40,000 nucleotides of DNA from Leptolyngbyaceae cyanobacterium (GTDB taxonomy: Bacteria; Cyanobacteriota; Cyanobacteriia; Phormidesmidales; Phormidesmidaceae): contig CBDHHL010000056.1 in NCBI GenBank assembly GCA_965263355.1, positions 882,241-922,240 on the forward strand, given 5' to 3'. Shown piece by piece: positions 3,098 through 39,865 of the stretch (the stretch's first letter is position 1; each line of letters starts with the position of its first letter). A model generated the notes under the pieces. That model was not told the origin of the DNA and searched no databases. It saw nothing but the letters and a program-made list of their open reading frames with translations. A program made the translations under genes and the position numbers.

Positions 3098-6000
3098 TCA
3101 ATTGAGGTAGGCTTGGAGCTGTTGTGCTAAAACTTTTACATGCTGAGGATCACGCATCATAGACATGTGGTCTCCAGGTACCCAATCAAAGGTGACTTGC
3201 TGAGCTAAATCATGCCAACCCAATGTTGGGTCATCGGCCTGGTTGGCAACACCATCCTTAGCTTGCAGTAGGACTAATTCTCCGGAATAAGGTTGTGGGA
3301 CATAGGTTTGTGCGGCTTGTTCATGTCCGGTTTGAACTTGAACAATACAATTTAATTGTTCTACCCCAAAGCCTGGGCTCAAGGAGATATTACGTCGCTC
3401 GGCTTCCGAGATAATGTAGGTGAGCTGATCTTCCCAGCTCATCGTGCGTAAGTGGCGATTTAACCCATTGAGTTCATCGGAGGGCAACGCAAGGTGACGA
3501 CCGACGAGTTCAGCTAACAGGTCAGTCGCATCAGGAATTTGATCAACCGCCATCAAGGAGTTCACATCCATAAAAATCAGACGAGGCGGTTGTTCGCCAT
3601 TACGCGTTAGTTGCTGAGCCATTTCCCAGGCAATGGTTCCTCCCAAACACCAACCCGCTAGATGGTAAGGGCCTTCAGGTTGAACTGTTTTGATCACTTG
3701 AAGGTAGTCCTTAGCCATGGTCTCAATGCTATTGTCGGCGGGTTGACCGGGTTCAAAACCGCGTGCTTCTAAACCATAGATGGGACGGTCCTGGCCCAGG
3801 TACGAGACGAGCTTTTGATAGTTCAAAACACTGCCACCACCAGGATGGATCAGGAACAGCGGTGGCAAGGTTCCCTGGGGTTGTAATGGTGTGAGCGGTG
3901 ACCAAGTTGGGGGCTCACTACCCTGTTGGATGGTTTGCTGCAATAGCATGGCCTGCTGTTCAATGGTTGCTCCCTGGAATAGGGTCACCAGGGGTAGGGT
4001 ATGCCCAAGCTTCTCGTGGATACGGGACATTAACGATACGGCCAGGAGAGAATGGCCTCCGAGATCAAAGAAGTCGTCTACGATGCCGATGGATTCTACC
4101 TTGAGTACCTCAGACCAAATCTGGCTGAGCTGTAACTCTAAATGGTTGCGGGGTGCAACAAATAGCCGATCGGATGGAGGCTGATATTCTGGAGCGGGTA
4201 GAGCCTTGCGGTTGATTTTGCCGTTAGGGGTTAATGGTAAGGCATCCAAATATACGAAGGCATTTGGCACCATGTAGTCTGGTAGTTGTTCTTTGAGAAA
4301 CTCTCGTAGGGAGATCGGGGAAATATCTTCATTAGAGGTCACTACGTAGACCACTAACTGCTTATTGCTGGGGTCATCGGCTCGGACGATTGCGATCGCT
4401 TCCCGCACCTGAGGATGTTTCTGAAGTGTAGCTTCCAGTTCACCCAGTTCAATCCGGAACCCTCGCAGCTTAACCTGTTGGTCACGACGTCCCAAGAATT
4501 CTACATTGCCATCTGCTTGATAACGGGCCAGATCGCCAGTGCAGTATAACCGTCCTGGGCCAAAGGGATTGCGGATAAACTTCTCAGCCGTCAGCTGAGG
4601 ACGATGTAAATACCCCAGACTCAGACCCGCGCCCCCAATATATAGGTCTCCAGTCACGCCCACGGGCACGGGCTGCATGGCCGGATCGAGAACATATAGC
4701 TGGGTATTGGCAAAGGGCCGACCAATGGGAACGGCCACATCGGCAGCATTATCATCTCCCTGGAGTTCAAAATAACAGCTATCAATAGTTGCTTCGGTAA
4801 CGCCGTAGGAATTGATCAATCGCGTTTGCTCGCCACAGATGCGGCGGAACTTCTGGTATTCAGCCATGGACCAGAAATCAGAGCCCACCACTAAAACCCT
4901 CATAAAATTAAGGTTTTGGTGGCTGTTTTCCAGGTAGTTAGCCAGTTGTCTAAAGACAGCGGGGACAAATTCTGCACAGTCCACAGCTTCTCGGCAGATC
5001 AGACTGTAAAGCTGTTCGGCATCCAGCAGAATTTCCCGAGGACAGAGCACCAGCTTGGCACCGGAACAGAGGGCTCGTACCCAATCTCCAGTAAATACAT
5101 CAAAGGAGAAGCTGGCCATTTGTAAATGGCTGGAAGTACGCTGCTTGAGCTGGTACGCATCTTCCCAGGCAAAATAGGCGTTTACCAAGCTGCGATGAGC
5201 CACCGCCACCCCCTTGGGTTGGCCCGTTGAGCCAGAGGTGTAGATGACATAGGCACGGCTATCTTGGGCCACGGGTGCCACGGGATTCCCCACGGGGGCA
5301 TGGACAATATCTTGATGGGTATCTAAACAAATCACCTGGGCATCCTGCTGCGGCAGACGATCTAGACCAGATTTTTGCGTAATCAACACCGAGACAGCGG
5401 CATCCTGCAGCATGTAAGCAATACGTTCCTGGGGATACCGAATGTCCAGGGGAAGGTAGGCCGCGCCCACTTTGAGAATGGCTAAGAGACTGACAAGTAG
5501 TGCTGGAGAACGTTCCAGATAGATACCCACCAGGGTGTCGCTACCGACACCCTGGGCCTGAAGAGTATGGGCTAGCTGATTAGCTTGGGCATTTAACGCC
5601 TGATAGGTTAGCGTGTCCCCATTAAAAACAACGGCAATGGCATCTGGCTGGCGTTCAACCTGTTGTTCAAACAGTTGGTGAATACACAAATCTTGGGCAT
5701 AGGTGACCTGGGTGTCGTTCCATGACACCAGGACTTGCTGCCGTTCCGCCTGACTGAGCAAGGGTAGCTGGGTAACCTGTAACTGGGGCTGAGCTAAAAT
5801 TCCAGCTAGAAGAATTTGGAAATGGCGGGTTAGGCGCTCAATAGTGTCTGGCTTGAATAAATCGGTACTGTATTCCCAAATGCCTTCAATGCCAGCCTCA
5901 CTTTCTGTCATGGTGAGGGTGAGGTCAAACATCGCCGTGACAGTTTCAGGCTCCAGGGTGGTCATGGTGAGACCAGGCAACTCTAAGGCCGCATTGGATG

Positions 6001-9000
6001 AGCTGTGCCAGTCAAACATCACCTGAAACAGGGGAGAATGGCTCAGATTACGATCGGGTTGTACCGCCTCGACAACTTGCTCAAAGGGAACATCCTGATG
6101 GCTGTACCCCCCTAAGGCTGACTGCCGCACTTGTTCCAGGAGGTCTGTAAAGGTGAGACTGTCGGTGAGCTGAGATCGCAACGCTAGCGTATTGACAAAA
6201 AAGCCAATCAACCCTTCAATTTCAGACCGGTTACGGTTAGCAATGGGGGTGCCCACGACAATGTCATCTTGACCACTGTAGCGATGCAATAACAGACTAA
6301 AGGCCGCAAACAGCACCATAAATAGAGTTGTTCCTGTGGTCTGAGCCAGTCGTTTGAGCTGTGGACATAGCTCTGGGGAAAGAACAAATGTTTGCTGTTG
6401 TCCCCGATAGGTTTGCTGAGCCGGTCGAGGATAGTCTGTGGGTAACTCCAATAGAGCAGGTGCATCGGTTAGATAGTCCTGCCAGTAGGCCAGTTGCCGT
6501 TGTAGTACATCGCCCTGCAACCACTGGCGCTGCCAATGGGCAAAATCTCTATATTGAAGCGTTAACCCTGGCAATGGTGACGATTGCCCCTGGGTAAAGG
6601 CACTATAAAGTGTTGTTAGCTCCTGAATCAGGATGCCCATGGACCATTCGTCGGCCACAATGTGGTGCATCGTGGCTAACAGAATATGGTCCTCAGCCGC
6701 AACCTTTAACAAAACGGTTCGTAGCAGCGGAGCCTTGGCCAGATCAAAGGGGGTGTGGGCATTCTCCGCTAGCTGCTGCTGAATACGACGCGTCTGTTCA
6801 TTGACCTCCACTGTCTGTAGGTCAACCAGCTCCAGGTCGAGGGACACCGCTGGCTCAATCCACTGCATCGGTGTCCCCCCATGATTGCGAAAATAGGTCC
6901 GCAATATTTCGTGACGTTGCACCAGTTCATCTAGGGCCTGCCCCAGCGATGGGATATCCAACGGTCCCTGGAGTTGAATGGCCAGGGGCATGTTATACGT
7001 CGAATTGGGACCCTCTAGCTGATCTAAAAACCACAATCGTTCCTGGGCCCAGCTGAGGGGCAGTGGCTGGTCAGCGACATGCGGAATCGGAACAATGGGA
7101 GGGGCGACCTGTTCTTGATCGCCGGTTAAAGTGTCGTGAATTAAGGTGGCTAGTTCTGCAGGGGTGGGGGCTTCGAATAGGGCACGGAGAGGAATTTCAG
7201 TCTGAAACGTCTGCCGTAGTCTAGAAACAACCTGAGTTGCCAAAAGAGAATGTCCACCCAATTCAAAGAAACTATCATAAGCACCCACCAATGGTGCCTG
7301 AGTATCCTGGCTAAGAACGATGGCAAAACTATCTGCAATTGCCTGCTCAATGGGAGTCCTTGGAACCACCATATCTGCCGTCTGACTTACGTCTACCGTG
7401 GGGGTTGGCAAAGCACGGCGATCGACTTTGCCATTGGGTGTCAGCGGTAATTTTTCTAAGAATGTAAAGGCTGAAGGCACCATATGGGCCGGTAAGGTCT
7501 GCTTCAAAAACTGTCGCAGGTCCTTCGCAGAGAGGGCAGGCTCGGTTGGCACCACATAGGCTGCCAGATAGCTGGACCCTGGCTGATCGTCCCGAGCCAC
7601 AACAATGGCACCACTGACTTGGGGATGGCCTAATAGGACTGCCTCTAGCTCTCCCAACTCAATCCGGAAGCCCCGAATTTTGACCTGATTATCTGAGCGG
7701 CCTAAAAATTCAATATTGCCATCCGCTCGGTAGCAGGCTAAATCCCCGGTCTTATATAAACGCCCTTCACCAAACGGATTGGGAATAAACCGTTCTGCGG
7801 TGAGATCATCACGGTGTAAATATCCACGGGCTAAGCCTGCTCCACCAATATGCAGTTCGCCCACAACCCCCAAGGGCACAGGCTGCGCCCGTTGATCCAA
7901 CACGTGTAATTGGATATTAGAGAACGGACGACCAATGGGCACCGCCATGTCCTGGGGCCATGCCATGGCAGTATCCCCCGGTGCTTCAAAGTAGCAACTG
8001 TCAATAGTTGCTTCTGTGACACCATAGGAATTGATCAAACGGGTTTGAGGTCCACAAATTTGCCGGAATCGCTGATATTCCCCCATCAGCCAGAAATCAG
8101 ACGCCACTACCAAAACAGTCATAAAGTCCAGGGTCTGTTCTGTAGTATCTAGATAACTCACCAGTTCTCTAAATACAGCGGGGACAAACTCTGCACAATC
8201 CACAGCTTCCCGACACATAAGCTGATACAAGAGCGCAGATTCCAGCAAAATTTCCCGAGGACACAGCACAAGCTTTGCCCCAGAGCAAAGGGCCCGTACC
8301 CAGTCTCCGGTAAATACATCAAAGGAGAAACTGGCCATCTGTAAATGACTGGATGTCTGCTCCCTCAAATGATACGCCGCTTCCCAGGCAAAGTAAGCGT
8401 TGACCAGACTACGATGAGCAACCGCAACCCCCTTTGGTTGACCGGTGGAGCCCGAGGTGTAAATAACGTAGGCCAGATTATCCTTAGTTGTTGATAGGCT
8501 GAGATTCTCAGCAGGATGCTCCAAGCGCTGCTGGTTATCATCGATTAACAGAACAGGGGCATTAGCGTGAGTTACAGACGCGGGGAGCGCATCTAAACAA
8601 GATCGCTGACTAATTAGGACGGTTACTCCTGCATTCTCCAGCATGTAAGCAATGCGCTCTTTGGGATAGCTGCTTTCCAGAGGCAAGTAAGCTCCCCCCG
8701 CTTTTAGGACGGCCAAAACACTGATGAGCAAATCGGGGGAACGCTCCAGGCAAATACCCACCATGGCATCGGGGCCAACCCCAACGGATTGAAGTTCATG
8801 GGCTAACTGGTTTGCTTGCTGATTTAATTGTTGATAGGTTAACGTTCTCTCCCCTGAAACTAGCGCGATGGCCTCGGGGGTGCGCTCAACCTGTTGTTCA
8901 AACAGCTGATGGATACCCTCTGTTGGCGAATAGCTGAGGGTGGTGTCGTTCCAGCTGATAAACTGTTGCCGTTCCGCATCCGTAAGCAATGGAAACTGGC

Positions 9001-12000
9001 TGATATTGGCGGTGGGGTTGGCTAAAATGCCTGCCAACAGGGTCTCAAAATGTTGGGTTAAACGAATAATTGTGGCTTGTTCAAACAGGTCGGTATTGTA
9101 CTCCCAAATACCCACTATCTTTGCGTCTTCCTCAACCATGGTGAGGGTCAGGTCGAACTTAGAGGTGACATCATTGGTATGTACAAAGTTCATCGTCAAC
9201 CCTAATACATCCATGGATCTATTCGCAGCGCTTTCCCAATCAAACATCACCTGGAAGAGCGGCGAGTAGCTCAGGTTACGTTCCGGTCGTAGGGCTTCTA
9301 CCACTTGCTCAAAGGGAACATCCTGATGACCATAGCTACCCAGAGCGCCTTGGCGAATTTGTTCCAAGATATCTAGGAAGGAAAGATTGTTGGAGAATTG
9401 CGATCGCAACACCAACGTATTAACAAAAAAGCCAATTAATTGTTCAACCTCTGTGCGATTACGATTCGCAATGGGGGTCCCAACCGCAATATCCTCCTGA
9501 CCGCTATATCGATGGAGTAAGAGGCTAAACGTAGCAAGCATTACCATAAATGGCGTTGCGCCCGTTGACTCTGCCAGTTGCTTGAAAGGCTGTATCAACT
9601 CCTGAGCCAGAGTGAACTGATAGGTTTGTCCCCGATAGGTTTGCACCGCTGGTCGGGGGTGATCCGTAGGTAGTTCTAGCAGGGGGGGCAAATCGGCCAA
9701 ATAGTCACGCCAATAGTCCAACTGCTGTTGTAAAACCTCATCTCGCAACCACTGCCGTTGCCACTGGGCAAAGTCCGCATACTGAATGGTTAATGGCGGT
9801 AGGGGGGAGGGTTGACCCTGGGCAAAGGCTCGATAAAGGGTCTGTAACTCCCGAATAATGATCTCATCAGACCATGCGTCGGACACAATATGGTGTCGAA
9901 TAATCAACAGAAGATAGGCTTCAGGCGCTTGCTGCACAAGTCTTACCCGTATTAGCGGCGGTGCTGACAAGTCAAAAGGCGTTTGATTTTCCTCAGTAAT
10001 CTGCTGCTGGAGCCGCGTTTCTAACTCAGTAGGGGATACCCCTTGCAGATCCACGAACTGTAACTGAAATGGAACGGTTGGCAGAATAACTTGTATGGGA
10101 GAAGCACTATCCTCGGATTGAAAGCAGGTACGCAGCACTTCATGGCGCTGAATAATTTCCTCAAACGCCTGGTTGAGTGAATCCACATCCAGAGGACCTT
10201 GAACCTGTAAAGCCGTGGACATGTTGTATGTGGTACTGGGACCCTCAAGTTGATTTAGGAACCATAGACGCTCCTGTGCCCAACTTAGGGGTACGGGGGT
10301 ATCTGCATCTCTCGGAATCGGAACAATTGGCGGTGCGGTTTCTACTAACTCCTCGGTTAGCACCTCGTCAATCAGCAAACTTAGCTCCATCACAGTGGGA
10401 GCCTCAAACAGGGTGCGTAGGGGAATCTCCAGTTGAAAGGCCTGTCTGAGCCTAGAAATTGCCTGGGTTGCCAGGAGAGAATTGCCGCCTAGTTCAAAAA
10501 AGTTTTGCTGGATGCTAACCGCATCAAAACCCAGAACATTCGCAAAGATATCAGCCGTTGTCTGTTCTGTTGGATTAGAGGGAGCTACAAAACTTACGTC
10601 GTTCTCAAGCTGCGTCGGTGGTAGTGGGAGGGCACGCTGATCAACTTTGCCATTGGGGGTGAGGGGCAACCCATCAAGCTGCACAAAGGCTGACGGCATC
10701 ATGTAATTTGGCAGCTGGACCTTGAGAAAGTTGCGGAGATCGTTCGGATTAATCTGCTCGTCCGAACTAACGAAATAGGCAACCAATCGCTGGTTGCCGG
10801 GAGTATCTTCTCGAACAATGGCAACACTTTGTTGAATTCGAGGATAGGCCGATACAGCTGCCTCAATTTCCCCAAGTTCGATACGAAACCCCCGAATTTT
10901 GACTTGATTATCAATACGACCTAAAAATTCCAGATTCCCATCTGGAAGATAGCGAGCCAGATCTCCAGTTTTGTAAAGACGCCCAGAATCAAAGGGATTA
11001 TCAATAAATCGCTCGGCAGTTATGTCAGGGCGATTTAAATAACCGCGAGCCAACCCGGCACCGCCCACATGAATTTCTCCAGTAACACCAATGGGTACGG
11101 GCTGTAACTGAGAGTTCAGTAGATAAACCTGAACATTACGAATCGGTTTACCAATTGAGATTTCTTGTGCTTGAGTCGTGTCTGAATCAGGCGGTGTTAG
11201 AAAACAACTGGTAGCAACAATGGTCACTTCTGTGGGACCGTAATTATTAACCAACAGAGGGCGGTCTAATCCGTTCTGACTCCAACGATCAGCAATAGTC
11301 TTGTGCCACCGTCGCACATGTTCTAACCGTGCCTTTTCCCCGCCTAAAATCACTAGCCTTAGGAGCTTGGGGATCTCCCATACAGCCAGTGCTAATTCAT
11401 CAACTAATTGATGCCAGTAGGCAGTAGGCAAATCTAGAATGCTTAGTTGCCACTGCTGGCAGGCTTGCATCAGTCCGGGACCAGACGTTAGGAATTCATC
11501 GGTGCGTAGAATCAGAGTGGCACCACAGGTCAGACCGGTATAGATTTCCTCTGCGGAGGCGTCAAAGCTGATGGAGGCAAATTGGAGAATACGGTCATTT
11601 TCATTGATGCCATATTCGGTACGTAGCGATTGGGAAATCTCTAGCAGGGCTCCATGGGGCGTCATTACCCCCTTGGGTTGTCCGGTTGAACCGGAGGTAT
11701 AAATAATGTAAACGAGATTTTCCAGGCTTACTCCACTGGTGGGATTGTTGGTTGGTTGGGCTGCGATCGCAGCCCAATCTGTATCCAGACAAACAACCTG
11801 TGATTGATGGTCTGGCAAACCAGCTACCAATGATTCCTGAGTCACCAGCACAGATACAGCTGAATCAGAGAGGATATACGCCGAGCGCTCCCTGGGATAA
11901 GTTGGATCTAACGGCACATAAGCCCCACCGGCCTTAAGAATGCCAAAGATACCCACCATCATATTGAGGGAGCGCTCAATAGAAATGCCCACCAGCACAT

Positions 12001-13567: not shown

Positions 13568-13597
13568 CCTTTACATTAAAATGAGTTAAAAACTAAG

Positions 13598-14392
13598 TTA
13601 AATTTGAGCTTCGAGCACCATTTCGGGATTTGAACTTTCAATATCAATTGAATTTACTGAGGCAAATTCCTGAGCGAGAAGTGTCAATGGATCTAGAAAA
13701 CTGCGTCGTTGGCCATCACCGTTTTGAGAGAATATCCCATGGTCAGCAAATCGGCTTAGCAAATGCAATTCTGTACAACCAACAATAACTGAATCAACCA
13801 CATACTTTTTTCGTAAATGTTCTACAAAATGGCAGGCAGAACGAATTGATATATCATTAGCCTTAACCTGATATATCATCTCATGAACAGCATCTTGATC
13901 AGCCTTATTTGGGGAAAGGATATAGGGTTCAGCCCTACCCCAAAGTGAGCTTCTCGGAAAGATATCTAACTGACGTGTACCATTGGTACAAAGTAACAAA
14001 TGGGTCGTTTTCCGAACAGCCACCTCACTAAGAATCGTATCAATCAAGCAAATCGTTCGGTCTCGAAGATTAAGGGGAAGCTGGGGCAGCAAATAGTGAC
14101 AGGTGATGCAACAAATGACAATTTTCGAAACCTTTAAATCATGCAAATAATTTAAAGCCTCAATCAGTTTGCTCAGCAAAACATCGTAATTTCCAGTCAG
14201 TAATGCTTGAGTCCGATCGGGAAACGTCGGATCAGAATAGGTGACAACCCTGGGTGCCGCCTGTTCACATTTTCCCCTAAGACCATAGGCATAAATTGTC
14301 TTGAGAAATTCTGCAGAGGCCAAGGGACCCATACCGCCTAAAATACCAAGCAGATCTGCTTCTGATGTTGTTGTCGGCTGTAAATACTTCAC
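13598..14392 (-). CDS. Aspartate/glutamate racemase family protein (McyF-like free amino-acid racemase)
   Basis: 264-aa ORF with a GTG start at 14392 and TAA at 13598-13600. Motifs: LGILGGMGPLASAEF, first Cys motif VICCITCHY (C95), second Cys motif VIVGCTELH (C206). It ends 30 nt upstream of the downstream NRPS start. Confidence 0.85.
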   Translation of the reverse strand: MKYLQPTTTSEADLLGILGGMGPLASAEFLKTIYAYGLRGKCEQAAPRVVTYSDPTFPDRTQALLTGNYDVLLSKLIEALNYLHDLKVSKIVICCITCHYLLPQLPLNLRDRTICLIDTILSEVAVRKTTHLLLCTNGTRQLDIFPRSSLWGRAEPYILSPNKADQDAVHEMIYQVKANDISIRSACHFVEHLRKKYVVDSVIVGCTELHLLSRFADHGIFSQNGDGQRRSFLDPLTLLAQEFASVNSIDIESSNPEMVLEAQI

Positions 14393-30400: not shown

Positions 30401-30662
30401 CGGGATCGGGATCGTAGTATTTATCAATGTCCCATCGAGTCGCAGGAATTTCAGTAACCCCATCTCCCCCTTGGCGCAATAGTTGCCAAAACGATGCCGG
30501 ATTGTCTACACCACCTGGAAAACGGCAACCCATACCAACAATGGCAATGGGCTCACGTTTGGCGTACTGTAGACGCTCAATCTTAGCTTCTAGGGTCTCA
30601 ATTAATAAAAATGAGCGCTGTAGAGGAGAGAGCTGTTCGGCCTGCACAGAATCGTTTGCCAT
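27432..30662 (-). CDS. Type I PKS, KS-AT only (second extension module, carrier domain missing)
   Basis: 1076-aa ORF. ATG 30660-30662 lies 1 nt after the upstream TAG. It has an N-terminal docking helix (LSPLQRSFLLIETLEAKIERLQ), a KS (DTACSSS, EAHGTGT, NISHVE) and an AT (GHSLGE, HAFHS = malonyl type). A ~135-aa low-complexity tail follows, and no ACP motif is present. Confidence 0.95.
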   Translation of the reverse strand: MANDSVQAEQLSPLQRSFLLIETLEAKIERLQYAKREPIAIVGMGCRFPGGVDNPASFWQLLRQGGDGVTEIPATRWDIDKYYDPDPDVPGKMYSRSGGFLEQVEQFDPQFFGISPREAVSIDPQHRLLLEVAWEALENAGYPVERDQGSSTGVFVGITLDDYGLIGKQAQAELQTQSPSVANPQFEIHGVTGSPSYAAAGRISYTFGFTGPAMAIDTACSSSLVAIHQACQSLRQQECEMALAGGVNLILLPDSMIATSKAKMLSFDGRCKTFDAVADGIGRGEGCGILVLKRLSDAQANGDRILATIRGSAVNQDGPSSGLTVPSGISQQAVMRQALKQAKLDPADISYVEAHGTGTPLGDPIELRSLAKVYGPGHSPESPLYISSAKTNISHVESAAGVAGVMRVILQLQHREIAPHLHLKTPTEHFNWQDVSVVVPDTVVPWEVQSGSRIGVVNSFGATGTNAHVIVQEAPQSVNTSPSPESSALPERSLHLLTLSAKSEAALKALANRYRQHLEHCQDSDLADICYSANTGRTPFKYRFALIASNLSDLGAQLDLLTTSEALELEPKFNVATPGLFPKVAFLFSGQGDHSVNMGRQLYETQPLFREILDNCDAILRSELKQPLIEILYPNSEIEPSDSEVKGLDQATDVQSALFALEYALAQLWIAWGIKPKVVMGHSLGEYVAACVAGVFSLEDGLKLVTERARLMQALPAGGVMVSLRCSVEQAKSVIDGQGVSHQVSVAAINGPASTVIAGSDFAVQTVVTQLEGDGITTKYLQVSHAFHSVLMQPMLANFEAVARQVTYSLPQTKLISCVTGQAITSEIATPEYWCRHILAPVNFAAGMETLSQEGCEVLVECGPKPTLLGMGRQCLSVDKGTWLPSLRPGYSDWQQMLTSLSELYLKGFTIDWVSFERDYPQRNQVTLPTYPFQRKPYWFDLPESVDAVPANGALNQSEQSPETTVSSPSSISGQTIPQEDTSKLPQENSIGELQLTESVGLSNNGWIAPPDQALETPLERLINQQIQTMSQLISQQLDVLKSQSVYQDSSEESPAFPTSESFPPTSSPLRPSMHN
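27531..27608 (-). repeat. Helix motif copy 1 (C-terminus of the KS-AT protein): LERLINQQIQTMSQLISQQLDVLKSQ
   Basis: aa 1019-1044. It is 17/26 identical to copy 2. The DNA is 57/80 identical in an ungapped hand alignment at an offset of 840 nt. Confidence 0.8.
28023..28910 (-). other. AT domain 2 (malonyl-type)
   Basis: aa ~585-880: FLFSGQGDH, GHSLGEYVAA, VSHAFHS. Confidence 0.85.
29247..30551 (-). other. KS domain 2
   Basis: aa ~38-472 of the 1076-aa ORF: [40 protein letters not shown]. Confidence 0.9.
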
Positions 30663-30663
30663 G

Positions 30664-33600
30664 CTAATCTCCCTCCAGCGCTTTTGCTAATTTTTTACTA
30701 ATCAAATCATCTAAACTCTCTTCTGATAATGTCCGCAGCTGATCAGAAAGTTCGGGTATTTCAGATGGGGATTCCACATCAACGCTAGAGACATCAAAAT
30801 CGGCATGGGAAAGATCAGGATTATTAGCGGCTCCCCATTCTAAAACGTCGACCATAATATACTTGGCCAAACTTAAAATATTAGGATGTTCAAAAATGAG
30901 CACAGTCGGCAAGGCTATTGCTAAACTGGCTTCTAACTTGTTTTTGAGCGCTACCGCCATAAGGGAATCCATACCCATATCAAAGAATCCGCGATGGGGA
31001 TCGATCAACGATGCGCCTTCCCGGTGACCAAGTGCTTGCGCAACAGTCCGTTGTAAATAAAGCACCACCTGCTCTTGGCGCTCATCCATCTGGGGGATTT
31101 TCTCTAGCTCTTGCCACAATTCATCTTGCTGCCCCAAATTGATTTGATTATCCCCATGGCCGATTTCAGTGAGGAGACGCTTACCGGTAGTACTCTCATA
31201 CAGAGGCTTGAAGATCGACCAGTCCATCTCAGCTACAATCAGGTTGGTTACCGGACCTGATGTTGAGCTATTTTGACGATCCGGCAGAATAAATCCGCCT
31301 GCTACATCAAGTAAATTCTCAGGTGTGGTGAGATGCAAGCCAATTTGAGTTGTATACTTTTCACCTTCAGGCGATGCCAACGCCATGCCGCCACCCGCTA
31401 AGGCCCCCACATTAACCGTCAGACCAGGTAAATCCAGCTGTTGCCGATAAGTAGCAAAGATATCGAGGAAGTAATTGGCAGCGGCATAATGTCCCAACCC
31501 CTGGGAACCAAAGATGGGAGACATGGAAGATGTGCAGAAGAAGAAATTCAGATCCAAATCGAGGGTCAGCTGATGCAGATTCCAGGTGCCCCAAACCTTA
31601 GGACGCAGCATTGCTGTTAAATCAGTCTCTGTAATCTCTGGAATGGTCTTTTGCTGTGTTGCCCCTGCAATGTGAAAAATCCCTTTAATGGGTGGTGCGA
31701 TCGCTTGCACTGTCTCAATGGCTTCTGCCATCGCCGCTGCATCCGCGACATCAGCCTGCAAGACCTGAACATTGACACCGTTCTGTTGTAATGTTTCGAT
31801 CACCTGCAAGGCTCGACCAGAAGGGGCTCGACGACCAGTTAATGCCAGGGACTTAACGCCCTTACTAGCTAGCCACTGGGCACTTCCCAGGCCGAAGTGT
31901 CCCAATCCGCCGGTAATAAGATAGGTCGCATTGGTGCTGAAGGTAATGGCTTCGGGGGGTACCTGCGTTTTTGCACTACGAACCAATCGCACGATGTAGC
32001 GCTGGCCATTGCGGAACACAATCTGAGCGTCAGCGCTAGGGCTGGAGGGTCTGAGGAGCTGATGTTGCAGTTGCTGAACGCTCCCAGAGAGCGGAGCCGT
32101 ACTGTCAAGATCGATGAGTCCACCCCAGAACTGAGGAAATTCAGTGGCAGCAACTCGGCCTAACCCCCACATGGGCGCTTGGGCAATTGAGCGTGGTGTT
32201 ATTTCTGCAGCGGTCTCCCCACCGACCGTTTGCACGTCTTCTGTGATAATCCAAAGCTTAGGAGGAGACGTTGTTGCCAGGTTGGCATTGGGGGTGACTG
32301 TGGTGACCGATTGGACTAGATGTAACAGACTGGTGACGGTCAATGCCTGGTCAGCTTGTAGGCTCGCCAGGGTAGTTTTCTGGCTGGGGGTAACGTCTAA
32401 ACTCCAGAGGTGAATAATCCCCTTGCAAGGGGGTTTATCCGCCGACAACAATTGTTTGAGGAGATTATCCATCGCCCTAGGATCGGTTGGGTCCAGGCTG
32501 TGAATAGAGGAACGCTCTAGCCCAATGTCAGCAGGCGTGTCGATGATTTCGGATGTTTCAGCGCCTTGACAATATACCAACTCACAGACATGTCCCTGGT
32601 TCTGAAGCTGGGTAGCAAGGGTGGTGCCAAGGTTTTTGCGATCGCAAAAAATAATCCAACGCCCCGTTGCCTCTTCCTTTACTCTGTCGTCTGTGGCACC
32701 AATATCGTCCAGGGGAGCCAGCTGCCATACCAACTCATACAACCAGTCATGGCCTAACGGTGGGGTTTGGTCAGAGTCGGCCATGGGGCTAGTCCGTTGC
32801 ATCTGTAGCCCCAACACTTCAACCGTCACCTCGCCAGCAGCGTTGAAGATACGCACATCCCCCTGAATCGTATCTTGATTCTCTCCACCGAGCTGTTTTA
32901 AGACAGCATGGCTCCACCCTTCTCTCCCCAAAGGTCCATGCACCTCAAAACTATCAATTCTTGTGGGCAAATAAAGAGAATCTGGCTCCGAGAACCCGTT
33001 ATCAAGCCCATCATTACCGTCTGGGGGACTACTGCCTCCTAGCGGGGTAAACAATGTAGCCCCCAACACCTGATGACAAGCATCCAGCACAGGTGCATAG
33101 ACCTCCAGGGCATTGGTATTTGCCACGATCCCCGCTGGCGTTTTTATCTCAGCCAAAACCTCCTGGTGCCCCAGCCAAAATTGCTGGATGCCCCGGTAGG
33201 TTTCTCCTAGCTGCAGACCGTGCTTTGCCAGGAGCTGATAGAAGTCTGCGCCACTCTGACGAGCTTGACAACGGGCACGTACCTCTTCGAGGCTAGCTTT
33301 GGCAATACTGGAGTTGCCTACCGACGTAGCGCCTTGACTGGCCGACGACCTGACCAGATTGTCATAGGCTCCACTGTCTGCCACTGATACCCGTTGGACA
33401 TCCACCTGACGATACCGTTCTTTTAATTCGTTCAGGTAAGGTAAATGCTCAATCACCGCTTGCTTACTGGGTCCAAAGTCCAGCAAACAGGCAATCTCAT
33501 CAACCCCAATCTGATCGAGATCCCTCACCAGCTCCAAACAACTCTCGGGTGTTCCAATTAGCCCCCTGGAGGTGGCAAAGCGCTCGTACAGGAAATTGAC

Positions 33601-34449
33601 AAATGTATCGAGATCGCGCTCCGACAATGTGGCGAAGTCAATATCTTGTCCTCGACTCTGGGCCAACCCCCGCAGTAAGCCAATATTAGATTTGAGATAG
33701 TCACAGTAGGGCTTACGGGCCTGTTCGCAGACTGTCGCAAATTCCTCACCGACAAAGGTATGTAACATCAGGGAAACAATCCCCGCTTCGGGATCATGAC
33801 CATGTTTGGCCCGTGCCTGCCGATAGAGGGCAATCTTTTCCGCCAGGGGTTCAATACCCTGATCGAGTAAATGGGTCAGTAAATTAGCACCGATTTTCCC
33901 GGCGTTAGCAAAGGTTTGGGGATTACTCGCTGCGGTGATCCAAATGGGCAGTTGGGGCTGAATTGGTGTGGGATAAATGCGCACCGTTGTGGGTTGTCCC
34001 TTGCCATTGGTAACAGCAATGCTCTCCCCTTGCCAGAGTTGATTTAAGGTGATGATGTTTTCAAACAACAGCTGATGCCGCTGTTCATAAACCTCTGGAC
34101 ACCAGGCAAAGTCATCGGGGTTCCAGCCCGAGGCCAGGGAAATACCCACCCGACCATTAGACAAATTGTCCACCATAGCCCAAGCTTCTGCCAGGGCCAG
34201 GGGATGGTGTAATGGCATAACAACGCTGCCTGCCTGCAGCCGAATACGCTCGGTTACCTGGGACAACGCCGCATTTAAGACCGCTGGATTGGGGTATAAA
34301 CTCCCAAACTGGGTAAAGTGACGCTCCGGGGTCCAAATGCTGGAAAAGCCGTGCTCATCACCAAACTTAGCGCTGTCGATTACCAGACCGTATTTCTCGT
34401 CAGCCAGGGCATCTTCAGTGCTGGCAAAAAACATAAGACCAAATTTCAT
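30664..34449 (-). CDS. PKS subunit: luciferase-like monooxygenase - DH second half - KR - ACP
   Basis: 1261-aa ORF. ATG 34447-34449 lies 4 nt after the upstream TAG. It contains an LLM domain (MKFGLMFFAS...LHHPLALAEAW...), DH C-half motifs (HGLQLGETYRG, VLDACHQV, LYLPTRIDSF), a KR (YLITGGLGHFG, GHYAAANYF) and an ACP (FFDMGMDSL). The C-terminus is an acidic docking tail. Confidence 0.93.
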   Translation of the reverse strand: MKFGLMFFASTEDALADEKYGLVIDSAKFGDEHGFSSIWTPERHFTQFGSLYPNPAVLNAALSQVTERIRLQAGSVVMPLHHPLALAEAWAMVDNLSNGRVGISLASGWNPDDFAWCPEVYEQRHQLLFENIITLNQLWQGESIAVTNGKGQPTTVRIYPTPIQPQLPIWITAASNPQTFANAGKIGANLLTHLLDQGIEPLAEKIALYRQARAKHGHDPEAGIVSLMLHTFVGEEFATVCEQARKPYCDYLKSNIGLLRGLAQSRGQDIDFATLSERDLDTFVNFLYERFATSRGLIGTPESCLELVRDLDQIGVDEIACLLDFGPSKQAVIEHLPYLNELKERYRQVDVQRVSVADSGAYDNLVRSSASQGATSVGNSSIAKASLEEVRARCQARQSGADFYQLLAKHGLQLGETYRGIQQFWLGHQEVLAEIKTPAGIVANTNALEVYAPVLDACHQVLGATLFTPLGGSSPPDGNDGLDNGFSEPDSLYLPTRIDSFEVHGPLGREGWSHAVLKQLGGENQDTIQGDVRIFNAAGEVTVEVLGLQMQRTSPMADSDQTPPLGHDWLYELVWQLAPLDDIGATDDRVKEEATGRWIIFCDRKNLGTTLATQLQNQGHVCELVYCQGAETSEIIDTPADIGLERSSIHSLDPTDPRAMDNLLKQLLSADKPPCKGIIHLWSLDVTPSQKTTLASLQADQALTVTSLLHLVQSVTTVTPNANLATTSPPKLWIITEDVQTVGGETAAEITPRSIAQAPMWGLGRVAATEFPQFWGGLIDLDSTAPLSGSVQQLQHQLLRPSSPSADAQIVFRNGQRYIVRLVRSAKTQVPPEAITFSTNATYLITGGLGHFGLGSAQWLASKGVKSLALTGRRAPSGRALQVIETLQQNGVNVQVLQADVADAAAMAEAIETVQAIAPPIKGIFHIAGATQQKTIPEITETDLTAMLRPKVWGTWNLHQLTLDLDLNFFFCTSSMSPIFGSQGLGHYAAANYFLDIFATYRQQLDLPGLTVNVGALAGGGMALASPEGEKYTTQIGLHLTTPENLLDVAGGFILPDRQNSSTSGPVTNLIVAEMDWSIFKPLYESTTGKRLLTEIGHGDNQINLGQQDELWQELEKIPQMDERQEQVVLYLQRTVAQALGHREGASLIDPHRGFFDMGMDSLMAVALKNKLEASLAIALPTVLIFEHPNILSLAKYIMVDVLEWGAANNPDLSHADFDVSSVDVESPSEIPELSDQLRTLSEESLDDLISKKLAKALEGD
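30850..31077 (-). other. ACP domain 1
   Basis: aa ~1125-1200: VVLYLQRTVAQALG...GFFDMGMDSLMAVALKNKLE (Ser1162). Confidence 0.85.
31697..31704. repeat. HIP1 palindrome GCGATCGC
   Basis: Exact 8-mer read at these coordinates. Confidence 0.9.
32639..32646. repeat. HIP1 palindrome GCGATCGC
   Basis: Exact 8-mer read at these coordinates. Confidence 0.9.
32785..33297 (-). other. DH C-terminal hot-dog half
   Basis: aa ~385-555: FYQLLAKHGLQLGETYRGIQQFW (GYxYGPxF-type motif), YAPVLDACHQV (DxxxQ/H motif; the Asp codon 33082-33084 was checked as GAT), LYLPTRIDSFEV. Confidence 0.7.
33415..34449 (-). other. Luciferase-like (FMN-dependent) monooxygenase domain of the PKS/NRPS-embedded type
   Basis: aa 1-~345 of the 1261-aa ORF: MKFGLMFFASTED...FSSIWTPERHF...LYPNPAVLNAAL...MPLHHPLALAEAWAMVDNLSNGRVGISLASGW. 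The N-terminus is the native start of this domain family. Confidence 0.85.
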
Positions 34450-34453
34450 GTCC

Positions 34454-37400
34454 CTATTTTCCCCCCTTTACTGCTGTCATCCGTCCGGCAGAGCCATTCC
34501 TGGTAGATCTCATTGGCATCTCTCCTGATGATTTAGGGGGACCGGCACCGATGGACTTGCGCCGACTGACATTGGCATCGGCATACAGCGTCCAATCCTC
34601 TGCTGCATCGCCTTGAGTCAGTCGGCAGCTATAGATCTGCAGCTGGCATTGATCGGCTGCTCGGGGGGTCAAGACCACCTGTACCCGTTGATCCCCCTGG
34701 CTGGATAAAAACAGGGGATAGTAAAGCTTGAGGTTGGTAATTTGATTCCAGGGTTCCTGAAACGCCGCCTGGGTCGCCTCCAGGGCAATTTGCAAATAAC
34801 CAGTATGGGGCATAATCACCGTGTGCCAGACCTGATGATCCTTAAGCCAGGTGAGATAGGTGTCATCGACAACAACATCCCAAACATACGCATCAGCCCA
34901 GGGAGCCGGAGGAGACAAGCGGTACCCTAAAATTGGGTGGCGCTCTCCAGAATAGAGTGATGATTTCCTAATGTCTGGGTCAGATATTGAACTGGCTGCA
35001 GAATCACACCAATAGCGCTGTCGCTGGAACGGATAGGTAGGTAGGGCAATTTTTTGACGTTGGGGTGCATCCGGATAAACACCGTGCCAATTGATTTTCA
35101 CACCTCTTATGTACAGCTCACCCAGGCTCGTGAGCATTTGTTGCCAGTCATTTTGTCTAGGTCTTAGGCTAGGCAACCAGGCTTTTCCATCTGCCGGTAA
35201 AAACTGTTGCCCCATGCCCAACAAAATCGGCTTTGGTCCACATTCAAGAAAGATATCACAGGTTTGATGTAGTGACTTGATGCCTGCTGCAAAATTAACG
35301 GGAGAAAGGATGTGCTGGCACCAATAGTCAGGGCTGGCAACAGCATCTGTTGCCAGCTGCCCCGTGATATTGGAAACAAACTTACGTTGGGGCAGAGCGT
35401 AACTGACCTGTTGAGCCACTGCCTTAAACTCCGCTAACATGGGTTGCATTAACGAAGAGTGGAAGGCGTGGGAGACCTGTAGTATTTTATGCTTCACGCC
35501 ATCCTTATCTAACTGGGTGACAATACCCTGAACAGCAGACTCCGGACCAGAGATAACAGTACTGCTGGGGCCATTGATAGCTGCGATCGCAACCGTCTCC
35601 TCTCCAGACAATGCAATGGCTGCCCTAACTCGCTCCACTGAGGCCATCAGGGAAACCATCCCCCCCCCTGATGGTAACTGTTGCATCAATCGACCGCGGG
35701 CGGCAATCAGCTTCAGTCCATCCTCCAGACTAAAGACGCCTGCGGCCCAGGCAGCCACATACTCGCCAACACTATGCCCCATAAAGACTGTAGGCTCGAT
35801 TCCCCATGACTCCCACAGTTGATACAACGCATACTCTAGAGAAAACAATGCAGGCTGCGCATAGGCCGTTTGGTGAATCAGCGTTGCCGTATTAGATGAG
35901 CCATTACTTGAACTATCACTGGGGTGTTGAGGATACAACACTTGCAACAATGGGATGTCCAGCCAGGCATCTAGAATCTCACTACACCGATCCAATGCCT
36001 GACGAAAAACCGACTGTGTAGCATAGAGTCGTTTACCCATATCTACATACTGGGAACCTTGTCCCGTAAATAGACAGGCAATTTGGAGAGATTTCTGCAG
36101 ATTGACACCCCCATTGCTTTTGAGATAGCCAACTGCCTCTTCCTGACAAACAACTGCTTCGAGTTGCTGAGTTAGCTTCTGAACCGAATCATGCACCAAG
36201 GCTAATCGATGATCAAAATGGGACCGCCCCGTATTGGCACTGAAACAAAGATCGACAACAGAGACGTCAGGATGGTGAAGCAAAAACTCACGATATCGCT
36301 GCGCTAAGGCCCGCAATGCACCCTCATCTTTAGCAGAAATTGTCAATAGATGAAGGTCATGTTGTAGCACAGAGGCCCCCAAGCTGTTTGTCTGACAATC
36401 AGGGCCAGAGCCCGCAAGCTTGGCAATACCAGCTAGTCCAGACAAGACCACATGGGCATTGGTACCGCCAAACCCAAAGGAACTTATCCCCGCGACCCGA
36501 CCTGTTTCAAGGGGCCAGTCTGTCAGGGCTGTGGGAATCTTTAAAGGCGTATTCTCTAACTTGATATAAGGATTTAGTTGCTTGAAGTGTAAATGGGGGG
36601 GAATCCGACCATAGTGCAAAGATAAGACCACTTTAATCAACCCTGCAATACCCGCTGCAGCTTCTAAATGGCCAATATTGGTTTTGAGAGAGGCAATCCA
36701 ACAAGCCGAATCCTGCTCTCTCTCCTGCATCAGTACGGTTTTAAGCGCATTCATCTCAATGGGATCTCCCAGGGATGTACCGGTGCCGTGTGCCTCTACA
36801 TAGCTCACCTGGGAAGGTTCTACACTCGCATTGTTAAGTGCCTGACGAATCACATCCTGCTGGGCGAGGCCATTGGGAGCTGTTAGACCATTACTACAGC
36901 CATCCTGGTTAATGGCTGAGCCTAAAATAACCCCGAAAATAGAATCGTTATCTGCGATCGCGTCTGCCAGACGCTTGAGCACTACCATTCCACACCCTTC
37001 CCCTCGCACATAGCCATTGGCATCCGCGTCAAAGGCCTTACAACGGCCATCAGGAGCCATCATCTGGGCCAGAGAAAAGGTGGTTGTAAGCTGATGCGTC
37101 AGCATTAGATTAACGCCTCCCACAAGGGCCAGGGAACATTCCTCCTGTCGTAGACTTTGACAGGCCTGGTGAACCGCCACCAGGGAAGAGGAACAGGCAG
37201 TATCGATGGCCAAACTAGGACCCCGAAAATCAAAGGCATAGGAAAGGCGATTGGCTGCAATACTCAGGGCATTGCCGGTGCCAACATAGGCATTAAGTTG
37301 ACTCAAATCATTGAGCTGCAGTTGAGCATAATCTGACGTACTAATGCCGACAAACACCCCTGTTTGACTACCTGCCAGATCGGCTGGGGCCAAATTCGCA

Positions 37401-39865
37401 TTTTCTAAAGCTTCCCAGCTCACTTCTAAAAGCAGCCGCTGCTGTGGATCTAAGCTGGTAGCCTCGCGGGGAGAAATACTGAAGAACTCTGCATCAAACT
37501 GATCAACATCACTCAAGAATCCTCCCCATCGACTGGTATTGAGTCCAGCAAGTGCACTGACATTCCAACGCTCATCGGGCACTTGAGTAATGGCATCCTG
37601 CCCAGTTTGTAGCAATTCCCAGAATGCCTCCGGAGTGGGCGCCCCTGGAAAGCGACAGCCAACACCAATGATGGCAATCATGTCTGGATCGACCTGAGGG
37701 GAACCCAACCCATTTGATGCAGGGGAAGAGGAGGGCACTTGATTTGCCTGGGCTGGGGAGGACACTGAATCACCAGACAAATATTGCGTCAAATTGGCCA
37801 GGGTTGGATAGTCGTAAAGCAATGTAGGGGAAATCTCTTGCCCTAGCCAATCTTGCAACTGCCCCGATAATCCCACCGCTACCGCAGAACTGAGCCCATA
37901 GTGGGCCAAGGGTTCATAAATATCAATCTCATGGGGAGCCACCTGCAATTGTGCCGCCACCTGAGCAATTAACCAAGCCTGAATCGTTCCTGCATCGGGA
38001 AAATCAAGCACTTTAACGGGCTGCTTTTCCACCTTTGGTAAAGGAACTCGGCTTGTTTCACCCAGCTGCCAACTCGCAACAGAATTCAAGCCATCGTTGG
38101 CAAATTCAGCTTGACATGTTCGTCGCCTCACCTTGCCGCTGGATGTTTTCGGCAAACTACCCGGCTTTAGCAGTTGAACTGCATATAGGGGTAAATCATG
38201 GTACTCAGATACAGCCCTGCGCATCTGGCAAAAAATCTCATCAGGAGCCAGTTTGCGCAAATAGCGACGCTCCACTTCATGAACCACCACCAGCTGTTCT
38301 TGTCCTTCAATTTCAAGTCCAAAAGCGGCCCCACCACCCGCTCGCAGGGCCGAATGACTGCGCTCAATGGTCAATTCAATATCCTGGGGGTAGTGATTTC
38401 GTCCCTGGATAATAATAAGATCCTTAATCCGTCCAGTGACAAAGAGTTCTTTATCTCGAAAAAAACCTAAATCACCTGTTCGCAAAAATGGTCCTTCTCC
38501 GGTGTCTGCAGTAAAGGCTTGAAAGGTCTCTCTTGTCTCCTGAGGGCGTTGCCAATACCCCTGGGCAACATTGCCACCTGCCACCCAAATTTCACCTACC
38601 TGCTCAGGCAAACAGCGGGTTAAATCTTCAGGATTAACAATAATAATCTCTTGCTCTAACCAGGTTTGCCCACATCCAACAATCCCTTTACTATAAAGCT
38701 GTTTAACAGCTTGATTTTCATCGGCTACAACTACTTGGTTCTGACTTAACGCATCCTCCTGAACCTCGAAGATCACGGGTGCTTGTGCCTTTAATCCTCC
38801 CGAAACCAACAAACTGGTTTCTGCCATACCATAACAAGGATAAAAGGATTGCCAATGAAACCCACAGGACTCAAAAGTAGCTGAAAACCTCCGTAAGGTG
38901 TCTTCCCGTACGGGCTCTGCGCCACTATATGCTACATCCCAAGAACTCAAGTCTAGGCTCGCTCGTTGTTCAGCAGTAGTTCTCTGAATACACAACTCAT
39001 AGGCAAAATTAGGGGCACCACTGGTGGTGGCACGATAGTGGGAAATAGCCTGCAACCACCGCAACGGTTTTTGTAAAAATGCAACCGGTGGCATTAGAGC
39101 ACAAGGAATACCTAAATAAAGAGGCTGCAGAACATTACCAATCAATCCCATATCATGATGTAGGGGAAGCCAACCGACAAAAATAGTCTGATCGGTATGC
39201 CCAAAGGCAGCCTCAATCATGCGTTCGTTGTACATCAAATTGGCATGGGTCAGCATGACGCCTTTTGGAGTACCGGTTGACCCAGATGTGTACTGCAGGA
39301 ATGCCAATGTTTTTGCAGTGATACCGGCATCTTGCCAGGGGAACACCTGCTCGGTGAGAAGATCCTTATCAGTCACCAACCATTGAACAGGAGAAGAACA
39401 CCCAGGAGACACTAAATGCAACTGGAGTTGCGCCAATAACTTGGTGGTTGTAAGGACTACACTAGCATCAGCATCGGCAACAATGGCCTGCAGTCGGATT
39501 GCATTCCGGTTAGCCCGAGGAGGATATGCAGGCACAGCAACCAAGCCTGCATAGAGACAACCAAAAAAGGCCGCTATAAATTCAAGACTTGACGGATAAA
39601 CCAGGAGTGCGCGCTCCCCTGGAGTGCAGGTCTGCCGAAGTTGAGCAGCAATGACACGAGCCTGACAATCCAGCTCTAGATAAGTTAAACGACCCGATTC
39701 AGACTCCCCATCTTGGAGAAAAATATAAGCAGTTTGGTGCGGTTGATGCTGGGCTCGATAGCGCAACAGATCTATCAATGTATCGGAACAAGCTGGCCTG
39801 CTCGAACTACATTCCTCATCTAGATAACTCTTGCCTGAATTCGCCCTCATTGATATCTTCACCAA
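34454..39865 (-). CDS. Loading/first-extension PKS: FAAL - ACP - KS - AT - DH first half
   Basis: 1803-aa ORF. The ORF-track start is TTG at 39865, and the first ATG is at 39848-39850. It contains a FAAL ([51 protein letters not shown]), an ACP (YGLSSAVAV), a KS (DTACSSS, EAHGTGT, NIGHLE) and an AT (GHSVGE, HAFHS). Only the N-terminal hot-dog half of a DH follows. Confidence 0.95.
34568..34939 (-). other. DH N-terminal hot-dog half only
   Basis: aa ~1643-1766: HPILGYRL...[27 protein letters not shown]. The catalytic His codon is at 34835-34837 (checked: CAT on the minus strand). A 37-aa basic tail and the stop codon follow. Confidence 0.75.
35186..36082 (-). other. AT domain 1 (malonyl-type)
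   Basis: aa ~1262-1560: [26 protein letters not shown] (the HAFH motif associated with malonyl-CoA selectivity). Confidence 0.85.
35583..35590. repeat. HIP1 palindrome GCGATCGC
   Basis: Exact 8-mer read at these coordinates. Confidence 0.9.
36440..37687 (-). other. KS domain 1
   Basis: aa ~727-1142: [13 protein letters not shown], active-site Cys in IDTACSSS (C891), [19 protein letters not shown]. Confidence 0.9.
36954..36961. repeat. HIP1 palindrome GCGATCGC
   Basis: Exact 8-mer read at these coordinates. Confidence 0.9.
37775..37993 (-). other. Loading ACP
   Basis: aa ~625-697: [13 protein letters not shown]...[25 protein letters not shown]. The serine motif is GLSS rather than GxDS. 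Confidence 0.75.
38096..39784 (-). other. FAAL (fatty acyl-AMP ligase) domain
   Basis: aa ~28-590 of the 1803-aa ORF. Adenylation core motifs are present, plus the FAAL-typical [20 protein letters not shown] and the [10 protein letters not shown] tail. An ACP follows directly. Confidence 0.85.

Follow-up and report, generated by a model that had tools for sequence, protein, structure and literature searches.

What does a 40,000-nucleotide stretch of DNA from a Leptolyngbyaceae cyanobacterium (contig CBDHHL010000056.1, positions 882,241 to 922,240; hereafter the window) make, given that it is filled almost entirely by one run of biosynthetic genes? A preliminary description of the window, made from its letters and open reading frames (ORFs), proposed a collinear line in which a fatty-acyl-AMP ligase (FAAL) primes a polyketide synthase (PKS), two malonyl extensions follow, an embedded class-III aminotransferase (AMT) acts on the chain, and six collinear modules of a nonribosomal peptide synthetase (NRPS) and a thioesterase (TE) complete it. 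In this study, the locus was analyzed using Pfam and NCBIfam models, catalytic motifs, substrate-pocket codes and comparison with related loci. This core reading holds by Pfam, NCBIfam and motifs, and we propose with good confidence that the window carries an intact hybrid FAAL–PKS–AMT–NRPS line for a β-amino lipopeptide in cyanobacterial DNA.

Nine ORFs, numbered g1 to g9 in the direction of the minus strand on which all of them lie, take up 98% of the window, or ∼39.2 of 39.9 kb. Such dense cover of a single strand is beyond chance. The intergenic gaps from g1 to g9 measure 4, 1, 186, 112, 63, 30, 81 and 157 nt; the three gaps quoted in the preliminary description (30663, 34450–34453 and 13568–13597) are exact by ORF coordinates. 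An Rfam scan of the window gave no match, and no intergenic terminators were found on its coding strand. In the following, ACP denotes an acyl carrier protein, KS a ketosynthase, AT an acyltransferase, DH a dehydratase (with its N- and C-terminal halves written DH(N) and DH(C)), LLM a luciferase-like monooxygenase, KR a ketoreductase, and C, A, T and E the condensation, adenylation, thiolation (carrier) and epimerization domains of an NRPS. The genes that form the assembly line are as follows.

g1, 34454–39865, minus strand: 1803 aa, FAAL-ACP1-KS1-AT1-DH(N) (Pfam, NCBIfam, motifs)
g2, 30664–34449, minus strand: 1261 aa, LLM-DH(C)-KR-ACP2 (Pfam, TIGR04020, motifs)
g3, 27432–30662, minus strand: 1076 aa, KS2-AT2 (Pfam, motifs)
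g4, 15384–27245, minus strand: 3953 aa, ACP3-AMT followed by three C-A-T modules (Pfam, pocket codes)
g7, 3098–13567, minus strand: 3489 aa, three C-A-T modules followed by a TE with a Cys nucleophile (Pfam, pocket codes, motifs)

Pfam recovered AMP-binding, PP-binding, KS, AT and PKS_DH_N domains in g1; Bac_luciferase, PS-DH, KR and PP-binding in g2; KS and AT in g3; PP-binding, Aminotran_3 and three C-A-T sets in g4; and three C-A-T sets with a Thioesterase domain in g7. The remaining genes gave PhyH (g5), Asp_Glu_race (g6), Cupin_8/JmjC (g8) and Acyl_transf_3 with SGNH (g9). The domain string of the preliminary description is thus correct in every element and in its order. Its gene text rightly counted nine genes, but its coordinates (3098–39865) left out two of them, the JmjC gene at 2120–3016 and the AT3 gene at 1–1962. 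A motif check found the catalytic residues kept in the KS, AT, KR, carrier, AMT, C, A, TE, PhyH and JmjC domains, and the carrier-domain serines were present in 7/7 cases. The HIP1 palindrome GCGATCGC, a cyanobacterial hallmark, occurs at 11 sites between positions 899 and 36961, against 0.32 expected from shuffles. This excess points to a cyanobacterial origin of the DNA, in agreement with the nearest homologues being cyanobacterial.

The first three genes and the start of the fourth would build the fatty acyl chain, and the domains of g1 and g2 are arranged as follows.

FAAL, g1 residues ∼28–600, nt 38066–39784, minus strand: AMP-binding domain plus a DIP2-like C-domain
ACP1, KS1 and malonyl-type AT1, g1 residues 631–696, 730–1094 and 1265–1589 (Pfam)
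DH(N), g1 residues 1643–1746, nt 34628–34939, minus strand: N-terminal half of the DH (Pfam)
LLM, g2 residues 1–343, nt 33421–34449, minus strand (Pfam, TIGR04020)
DH(C), g2 residues ∼384–560: C-terminal half of the DH, carrying DACHQ
KR and ACP2, g2 residues 841–1018 and 1132–1198 (Pfam; GMDSL carrier motif)

The top NCBIfam matches of the g1 N-terminus are fatty-acyl-AMP ligase models, and an ACP and a KS follow this domain in the same polypeptide. The motifs DTACSS, HGTGT, NIGH, GHSVG and HAFH were found in g1 and DTACSS, HGTGT, NISH, GHSLG and HAFH in g3, which is a KS-AT protein without its own carrier domain. Both KS domains hold the Cys-His-His set, and both ATs combine GHSxG with HAFH and are of the malonyl type; two malonyl extensions had been proposed on this same ground. 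The KR of g2 has the Lys, Ser and Tyr residues and the GGxGxxG motif. The DH is split over two polypeptides: g1 ends with its N-terminal hot-dog half, and g2 starts with the LLM and then continues with DH(C), so that the LLM sits between the two DH halves, embedded in PKS module 1 (Pfam, motifs). The LLM scored 490 bits over the full length of TIGR04020, the FMN-dependent MupA/Atu3671-family model (cut-off 244). In the DH portion of g1 an HPLL-type motif comes first, followed by a catalytic-His motif in which G is replaced by H; motif inspection and alignment identify the HxxxGxxxxP-like stretch, formerly taken for the catalytic-His motif, as the N-terminal HPLL-type motif.

The AMT and the six NRPS modules occupy g4 and g7, and the TE closes the line.

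ACP3, g4 residues 20–83 (Pfam)
AMT, g4 residues 313–691, nt 25173–26309, minus strand: class-III aminotransferase (Aminotran_3, residues 313–670, E 1e-50)
Module 1, nt ∼21876–25073, minus strand: A1 pocket DAHI(I/A)(T/G)HVVK, Pro-like
Module 2, nt ∼18696–21881, minus strand: A2 pocket DATKVGEVGK, canonical Asn code
Module 3, nt 15384–18695, minus strand: A3 pocket DARHFSLMVK, Arg at position 239, predicted D-Asp-type
Module 4, nt 10313–13567, minus strand: A4 pocket DAEDIGNIVK, Lys-like
Module 5, nt 7073–10312, minus strand: A5 pocket DVGEVASIDK, ornithine (Orn) or 2,4-diaminobutyrate (Dab) type
Module 6, nt 3893–7072, minus strand: A6 pocket DVGEVGSIDK, Orn
TE, nt 3098–3892, minus strand: Cys nucleophile in GWCLG

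The AMT is placed between the last PKS carrier domain (ACP3) and C1, and its pyridoxal phosphate (PLP) lysine is present in DIATYGK; the best relatives of this region are 42–47% identical. All six C domains carry HHxxxD(G/A/E) and all A domains the A10 lysine. Pocket codes were read from an alignment of all six A domains with that of GrsA, a procedure that reproduced the control GrsA code DAWTIAAICK; the McyE code was read from a locus described below, and the other reference codes are background. The A6 code differs from the Orn code by a single conservative change, and the two acidic pocket residues of A4 indicate a basic, Lys-like substrate. The extracted codes agree with the previously proposed order of Asn, acidic, basic, Orn and Orn; the first residue, which had been left as X, is refined to Pro-like by the A1 code, to which DVQLIAHVVK, which we take to be a Pro reference code, is nearest. 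C1 is 29–35% identical to the other C domains, a divergence that is as expected for a β-amino-acyl donor. C3, which would accept the module 3 residue, is an outlier among the six (39–43%). Modules 5 and 6 of g7 (3893–10312) contain 240–300 nt stretches that are 71–81% identical at a spacing of ∼3.2 kb, and C5 and C6 are 62% identical at the protein level; judged by this repetition, the two modules are an old tandem duplication.

The TE holds GWCLG and a distal His, with Cys and not Ser as the nucleophile. The nearest solved TE, AB3403 (4ZXH), aligns GWCFGG at the same place; by this alignment, a Cys-TE is unusual but has a precedent. The two synthetase proteins leave no room for an E domain, and a motif check of the six C domains found no dual E/C motif. 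Dual E/C domains were ruled out by the absence of the second HH motif, and the earlier statement that the line lacks E domains is confirmed by the C domains and the domain spacing. How a D-residue might be supplied to such a line is suggested by the sixth gene.

g6, 13598–14392, minus strand: 264 aa, McyF-like PLP-independent aspartate racemase (Pfam, PDB matches, TIGR00035)

The top PDB match of g6 is McyF (E 2.8e-37; ∼39% identity), with aspartate racemases next, and g6 scores 92 bits against TIGR00035 (asp_race). In the alignment the sequence is conserved around both catalytic Cys positions, which we assign as those of the two-Cys racemase family. The A3 homologues, at 42–62% identity (mostly ∼50%), fall into one large and coherent pocket family, D[AVP]R[HTSA]F[ASV]L[LM][AV]K. 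One locus of a Phormidesmis metagenome-assembled genome (MAG), L014, which had been found via its LLM protein, contains an NRPS with DARAFSLMVK as the pocket of its second A domain, followed directly by a racemase 51% identical to g6; this racemase/Arg239 pair lies at 18844–20656. A metagenome scan with g6 alone as the query gave no match. When g6, the L014 racemase and McyF were aligned and the alignment was used as the query, 80 loci were returned (L086–L165), and 25 of the 30 that hold any A domain include one of the Arg239 type. In these racemase-selected loci, which are not mutually independent and include several near-duplicates, 27/55 A domains are of the Arg239 type, compared with 1/26 in control loci selected by the LLM (Fisher p = 3e-5). 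The sole control case is L014, and it also stands beside a g6-like racemase. The Arg239 A domain, with the pocket D[AGP]RHL[AS]LM[TVA]K, usually belongs to the NRPS gene that follows the racemase directly, where it comes first among the A domains. Two of the loci, L150 (181–20605) and L151, show the domain order mcyE-mcyF-mcyG-mcyH; the McyE A domain in L150 reads DPRTIVVVGK, which differs from the code expected for McyE but likewise has Arg at position 239. From these associations we infer that g6 makes a D-Asp-type residue, which A3 then loads. Loading of a free D-amino acid from g6 would explain the absence of E domains.

The same arrangement is a point of likeness to microcystin synthetase, in which a free McyF-type racemase feeds a D-acidic residue to an Arg239 A domain without an E domain, and in which a PKS module with an aminotransferase (McyE) also yields a β-amino acid. 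By analogy, linkage through the side-chain carboxyl of the D-Asp-type residue, as in microcystin, is possible. However, the microcystin line starts from a phenylacetate-type unit, runs through four PKS modules and lacks both FAAL and LLM.

On the basis of these assignments, the following pathway is proposed. As read directly from the sequence, the FAAL adenylates a free fatty acid and loads ACP1. Module 1, formed by KS-AT-DH(N) of g1 with LLM-DH(C)-KR-ACP of g2, adds malonate, and module 2, formed by KS-AT of g3 with the ACP of g4, adds a second malonate. The further steps are predicted. The KR would leave a 5-hydroxyl, the MupA-family LLM would oxygenate the α-carbon of the module 1 intermediate, which later becomes C4, and the DH may act or may be a scaffold only; LLM domains in PKS modules have been proposed as α-hydroxylases (PMC8739492). 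The AMT would convert the 3-keto thioester to a 3-amino acyl chain, which C1 would couple to the Pro-like residue; Asn, the D-Asp-type residue, the Lys-like residue, Orn and Orn would then be added, with the McyF-like racemase making the D-Asp-type residue in free form and the Arg239-type A3 loading it directly. The Cys-TE would free the chain, most likely by macrolactamization, with the 3-amine closing the ring as it does in iturins. An undescribed cationic cyclic lipoheptapeptide would result, probably a membrane-active one.

Several observations weigh against this proposal. Transporter, phosphopantetheinyl transferase (PPTase) and MbtH genes were not found in the window. The KR lacks both the LDD and the Trp signature and matches neither the A-type nor the B-type, and the DH carries degenerate motifs (H for G at the catalytic His, and LGETY in place of YGP); together these features leave the oxidation pattern at C4 and C5 uncertain, including dehydration and the C5 configuration. 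The substrates of A1, A3 and A4 are assigned from pocket residues only. For A3, no racemase was in view near its family homologues at the three loci inspected, and the redundancy among the racemase-selected loci bears on the same assignment. The Cys-TE could release the chain in another way. Finally, both the expression of the cluster and its product are predictions. The degenerate DH motifs and the lack of PPTase, MbtH and transporter genes in the window are also what would favor a silent or decaying cluster that makes no product. However, the 3953- and 3489-aa ORFs run without interruption, and the catalytic residues of the KS, AT, KR, carrier, AMT, C, A, TE, PhyH and JmjC domains are all kept. 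Furthermore, the degenerate DH His motif is common to a relative in Dolichospermum flos-aquae (L081; HQVWDTVIMP), which makes it a trait of the lineage and not a sign of decay. Loss of function is therefore regarded as very improbable, and the intact line remains the preferred reading.

Two Fe(II)/2-oxoglutarate oxygenases accompany the synthetase genes and would tailor its residues.

g5, 14456–15271, minus strand: 271 aa, PhyH/EctD/GriE-type Fe(II)/2-oxoglutarate hydroxylase (Pfam, PDB matches)
g8, 2120–3016, minus strand: 298 aa, Cupin_8/JmjC Fe(II)/2-oxoglutarate oxygenase (Pfam, PDB matches)

The PDB matches of g5 are GriE (E 8e-69), a 7E01-type protein (1e-68) and EctD (1e-42). A halogenase was ruled out by the HxD triad (HQD...H), which marks g5 as a hydroxylase. 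It is 41% identical to GriE, a leucine 5-hydroxylase, 45% identical to the 7E01-type protein and 46–48% identical to PhyH genes that adjoin racemases in L133, L139 and L142. In these three loci PhyH lies directly upstream of the racemase, in the same order as g5 and g6; they are 86–88% identical to one another and are taken as a single additional lineage. The match to GriE had suggested that g5 supplies A1 with 4-methylproline; this idea was downgraded since the identity to GriE is below that to the racemase-linked PhyH genes. The enzyme would act on a free amino acid, and its substrate could be the Asp-type residue, giving 3-hydroxy-Asp, or an aliphatic precursor of residue 1.

The loci of the L133 lineage have PhyH, racemase and Arg239 NRPS genes in a row (1545–17940 in L133; also in L142 and L139). 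Beside the racemase/NRPS pair they hold a fused glutamate (methylaspartate) mutase, and they also carry an AsnB-type amidotransferase. Diaminopropionate would be made by two further proteins that resemble SbnA and SbnB, one a PLP-dependent enzyme and the other a member of the ornithine-cyclodeaminase family. The L133-type locus is an uncharacterized small NRPS cluster.

For g8 the PDB matches are JMJD6 (2e-26), JMJD5 (1e-22) and FIH (4e-10), and the HRD...H residues are present. JMJD6 and JMJD5 are lysyl and arginyl hydroxylases, and FIH, the more distant match, is an asparaginyl hydroxylase. By these matches g8 probably hydroxylates a peptide-bound residue, either Asn or Lys/Orn. Cupin_8 proteins in the laxaphycin cluster have been proposed to make 3-hydroxy-Asn and 3-hydroxy-Leu (PMC7524897).

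A possible hydroxylated Asp in a peptide with two Orn residues raises the question of whether the product might serve another purpose. Marinobactin-type siderophores carry an Asp-type residue and two Orn on a fatty tail, and the residue set predicted here resembles that type; the hydroxylated Asp, acting as an α-hydroxy-carboxylate ligand, and two Orn turned into hydroxamates would bind Fe(III). The position of PhyH next to the aspartate racemase, an order that recurs in L133, L139 and L142, makes 3-hydroxy-Asp plausible, and cyanobacterial β-hydroxy-Asp lipopeptide siderophores exist, such as the cyanochelins. However, the A5 and A6 pockets, DVGEV(A/G)SIDK, are those for plain Orn, with both acidic residues that hold the charged δ-amine, which weakens the siderophore alternative of the preliminary description. 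Its remark that no Orn N-hydroxylase or TonB-dependent receptor lies in the window was borne out: the window is without an Orn/Lys N-monooxygenase, an N-acyltransferase, a TauD-type Asp hydroxylase, a TonB-dependent receptor and a siderophore exporter. A single bidentate ligand would be insufficient. In addition, the cyanochelin B paper mentions no aminotransferase and describes a dedicated aspartate β-hydroxylase gene (DOX), and the cyanochelin cluster was ruled out as a match on these grounds. An amphiphilic siderophore is accordingly considered unlikely, and a cationic β-amino lipopeptide is preferred.

The last gene follows g8 after a gap of 157 nt and has the same orientation.

g9, 1–1962, minus strand: 653 aa, fusion of an AT3 membrane acyltransferase with an SGNH domain (Pfam)

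The G+C content is 40% over g9 (window positions 1–2000), compared with 44–53% across the synthetase genes, and no conserved association of g9 was found among 165 related loci. The gene may lie outside the cluster, and the low G+C content may mark the cluster edge.

Whether a line of this composition has already been characterized was considered next to the systems that it resembles. By its domain content, the cluster is a cyanobacterial representative of β-amino-fatty-acid lipopeptide clusters of the iturin/puwainaphycin/laxaphycin kind, the logic of which has been described for puwainaphycin and iturin (PMC4219810) and for laxaphycin, the cluster of which includes cupin_8 genes (PMC7524897). 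FAAL priming, PKS extension, an embedded class-III AMT, a collinear NRPS and a terminal TE are shared with the puwainaphycin (puw), laxaphycin (lxa) and iturin/mycosubtilin systems, and the lxa cluster is also similar in its cupin_8 genes and in a PKS module split across proteins. In contrast, FAAL and ACP are separate in the puw line for puwainaphycin/minutissamide, its first module is fully reducing and C-methylating, an oxygenase domain beside its AMT gives a 2-hydroxyl, and its product has ten residues; the window has neither a methyltransferase nor an enoylreductase domain, its LLM is in module 1 and not beside the AMT, and it has six modules. The lxa line for laxaphycin/scytocyclamide uses one extension, has 11 or 12 residues and contains E domains, whereas the window has two malonyl modules, an LLM in module 1 (placing oxygen at C4 and not at C2), six residues of which three are basic, a free racemase and a Cys-TE. 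The cluster of occidiofungin/burkholdine in Burkholderia (ocf) lacks the FAAL fusion, makes an octapeptide, and includes a glycosyltransferase, a halogenase and two TEs.

No characterized pathway that matches the cluster was found when it was set against the puw, lxa, ocf, microcystin (mcy) and cyanochelin clusters by their descriptions, as had been stated in the preliminary description. The six window proteins checked are singletons at 90% identity among ∼15 billion sequences, and the best relatives stand at 67% for g2, 42–47% for the AMT and 42–62% for A3. Among the features once listed as unrecognized, it is the combination that is unmatched; the individual parts have precedents, namely the split DH with LLM in 11 loci, the Cys-TE in AB3403, Cupin_8 in lxa and the McyF-like racemase. 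The cluster might nevertheless make a compound that has been described before, or might be closely akin to a characterized cluster that went unrecognized, since protein-search matches never exceeded ∼1.75 times the query length, so that long orthologues of g4 and g7 could be missed. The window's own long proteins were absent for queries made of their sub-fragments. With matches limited in this way, the lack of a close megasynthetase orthologue is not firmly shown. However, the six singletons, the best relative of g2 at 67% on a Tara contig with different downstream genes, and the differences of the puw, lxa, ocf, mcy and cyanochelin clusters in module number, tailoring domains and residue set all speak against this explanation, which we judge to be improbable, even less likely than a siderophore. 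An undescribed product is preferred.

The part of the line with the widest relatives is the module in which the LLM splits the DH. The gene boundary between KS-AT-DH(N) and LLM-DH(C)-KR-ACP is kept in 11 other loci from three phyla, which include cyanobacteria, a Herpetosiphonaceae MAG and a Bryobacterales MAG, and in these loci the LLM ORF begins −35 to +99 nt from the end of the DH(N) ORF. Conservation of the boundary across loci indicates that the split module is widespread and is not an assembly artefact. The best relative of g2 (67% identity) lies on the Tara scaffold_258 contig, the downstream genes of which differ, and the next (57–58%) are from Nostocales. The uncharacterized clusters of Dolichospermum flos-aquae (CP051206) and Tara scaffold_258 have the same boundary within the DH and the same LLM insert, with 57–67% identity to g2 overall and 76–88% in the LLM domain. 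Downstream they diverge: the Dolichospermum cluster continues with a 4225-aa megasynthase that starts KS-AT-ACP-LLM, and the Tara contig with an LLM-KR-C-A-T protein; the products of both are not known. The Dolichospermum locus (L081, 4236561–4260184) runs through Cupin_8, major facilitator superfamily (MFS), FAAL-ACP, KS-AT-DH(N) and LLM-DH(C)-KR-ACP genes to the 4225-aa protein, and its line holds two LLM domains.

Over 95% of its length, g2 shows 40% identity to Burkholderia proteins of 1107–1110 aa that combine LLM, PS-DH, KR and ACP domains. In the occidiofungin cluster, ocfI (3324 bp) is annotated as a flavin-dependent monooxygenase and adjoins the hybrid NRPS-PKS that builds a polyhydroxylated β-amino fatty acid; judging from length and species, the Burkholderia homologues are probably OcfI. 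The LLM-split DH unit thus appears to be conserved in cyanobacteria, Chloroflexota and Acidobacteriota, and probably in Burkholderia. Its chemistry may be, for example, a coupled dehydration and oxygenation that leads to a 4,5-dioxygenated 3-amino acid. A broader proposal would combine three elements: that the LLM-split DH is a distinct type of PKS module with its own chemistry, that the racemase with an Arg239 A domain is a general cassette for D-Asp-type residues, and that the product is a new cationic cyclic lipoheptapeptide scaffold. This combination is put forward tentatively, as a possibility with somewhat less than an even chance of holding in full.

The cluster and the side results leave the understanding of these pathways unchanged and do not amount to a new kind of biology. 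Within these pathways, the LLM-split DH module is widespread and merits biochemical study, and a McyF-like racemase beside an Arg239 A domain predicts a D-Asp-type residue where an E domain is absent. The source cyanobacterium is probably marine; for its PKS, the nearest relative comes from a Tara scaffold. β-Amino lipopeptides are often antifungal or membrane-active, and if the cluster is expressed, it would yield an undescribed cationic member of this class and would be a useful lead for genome mining.

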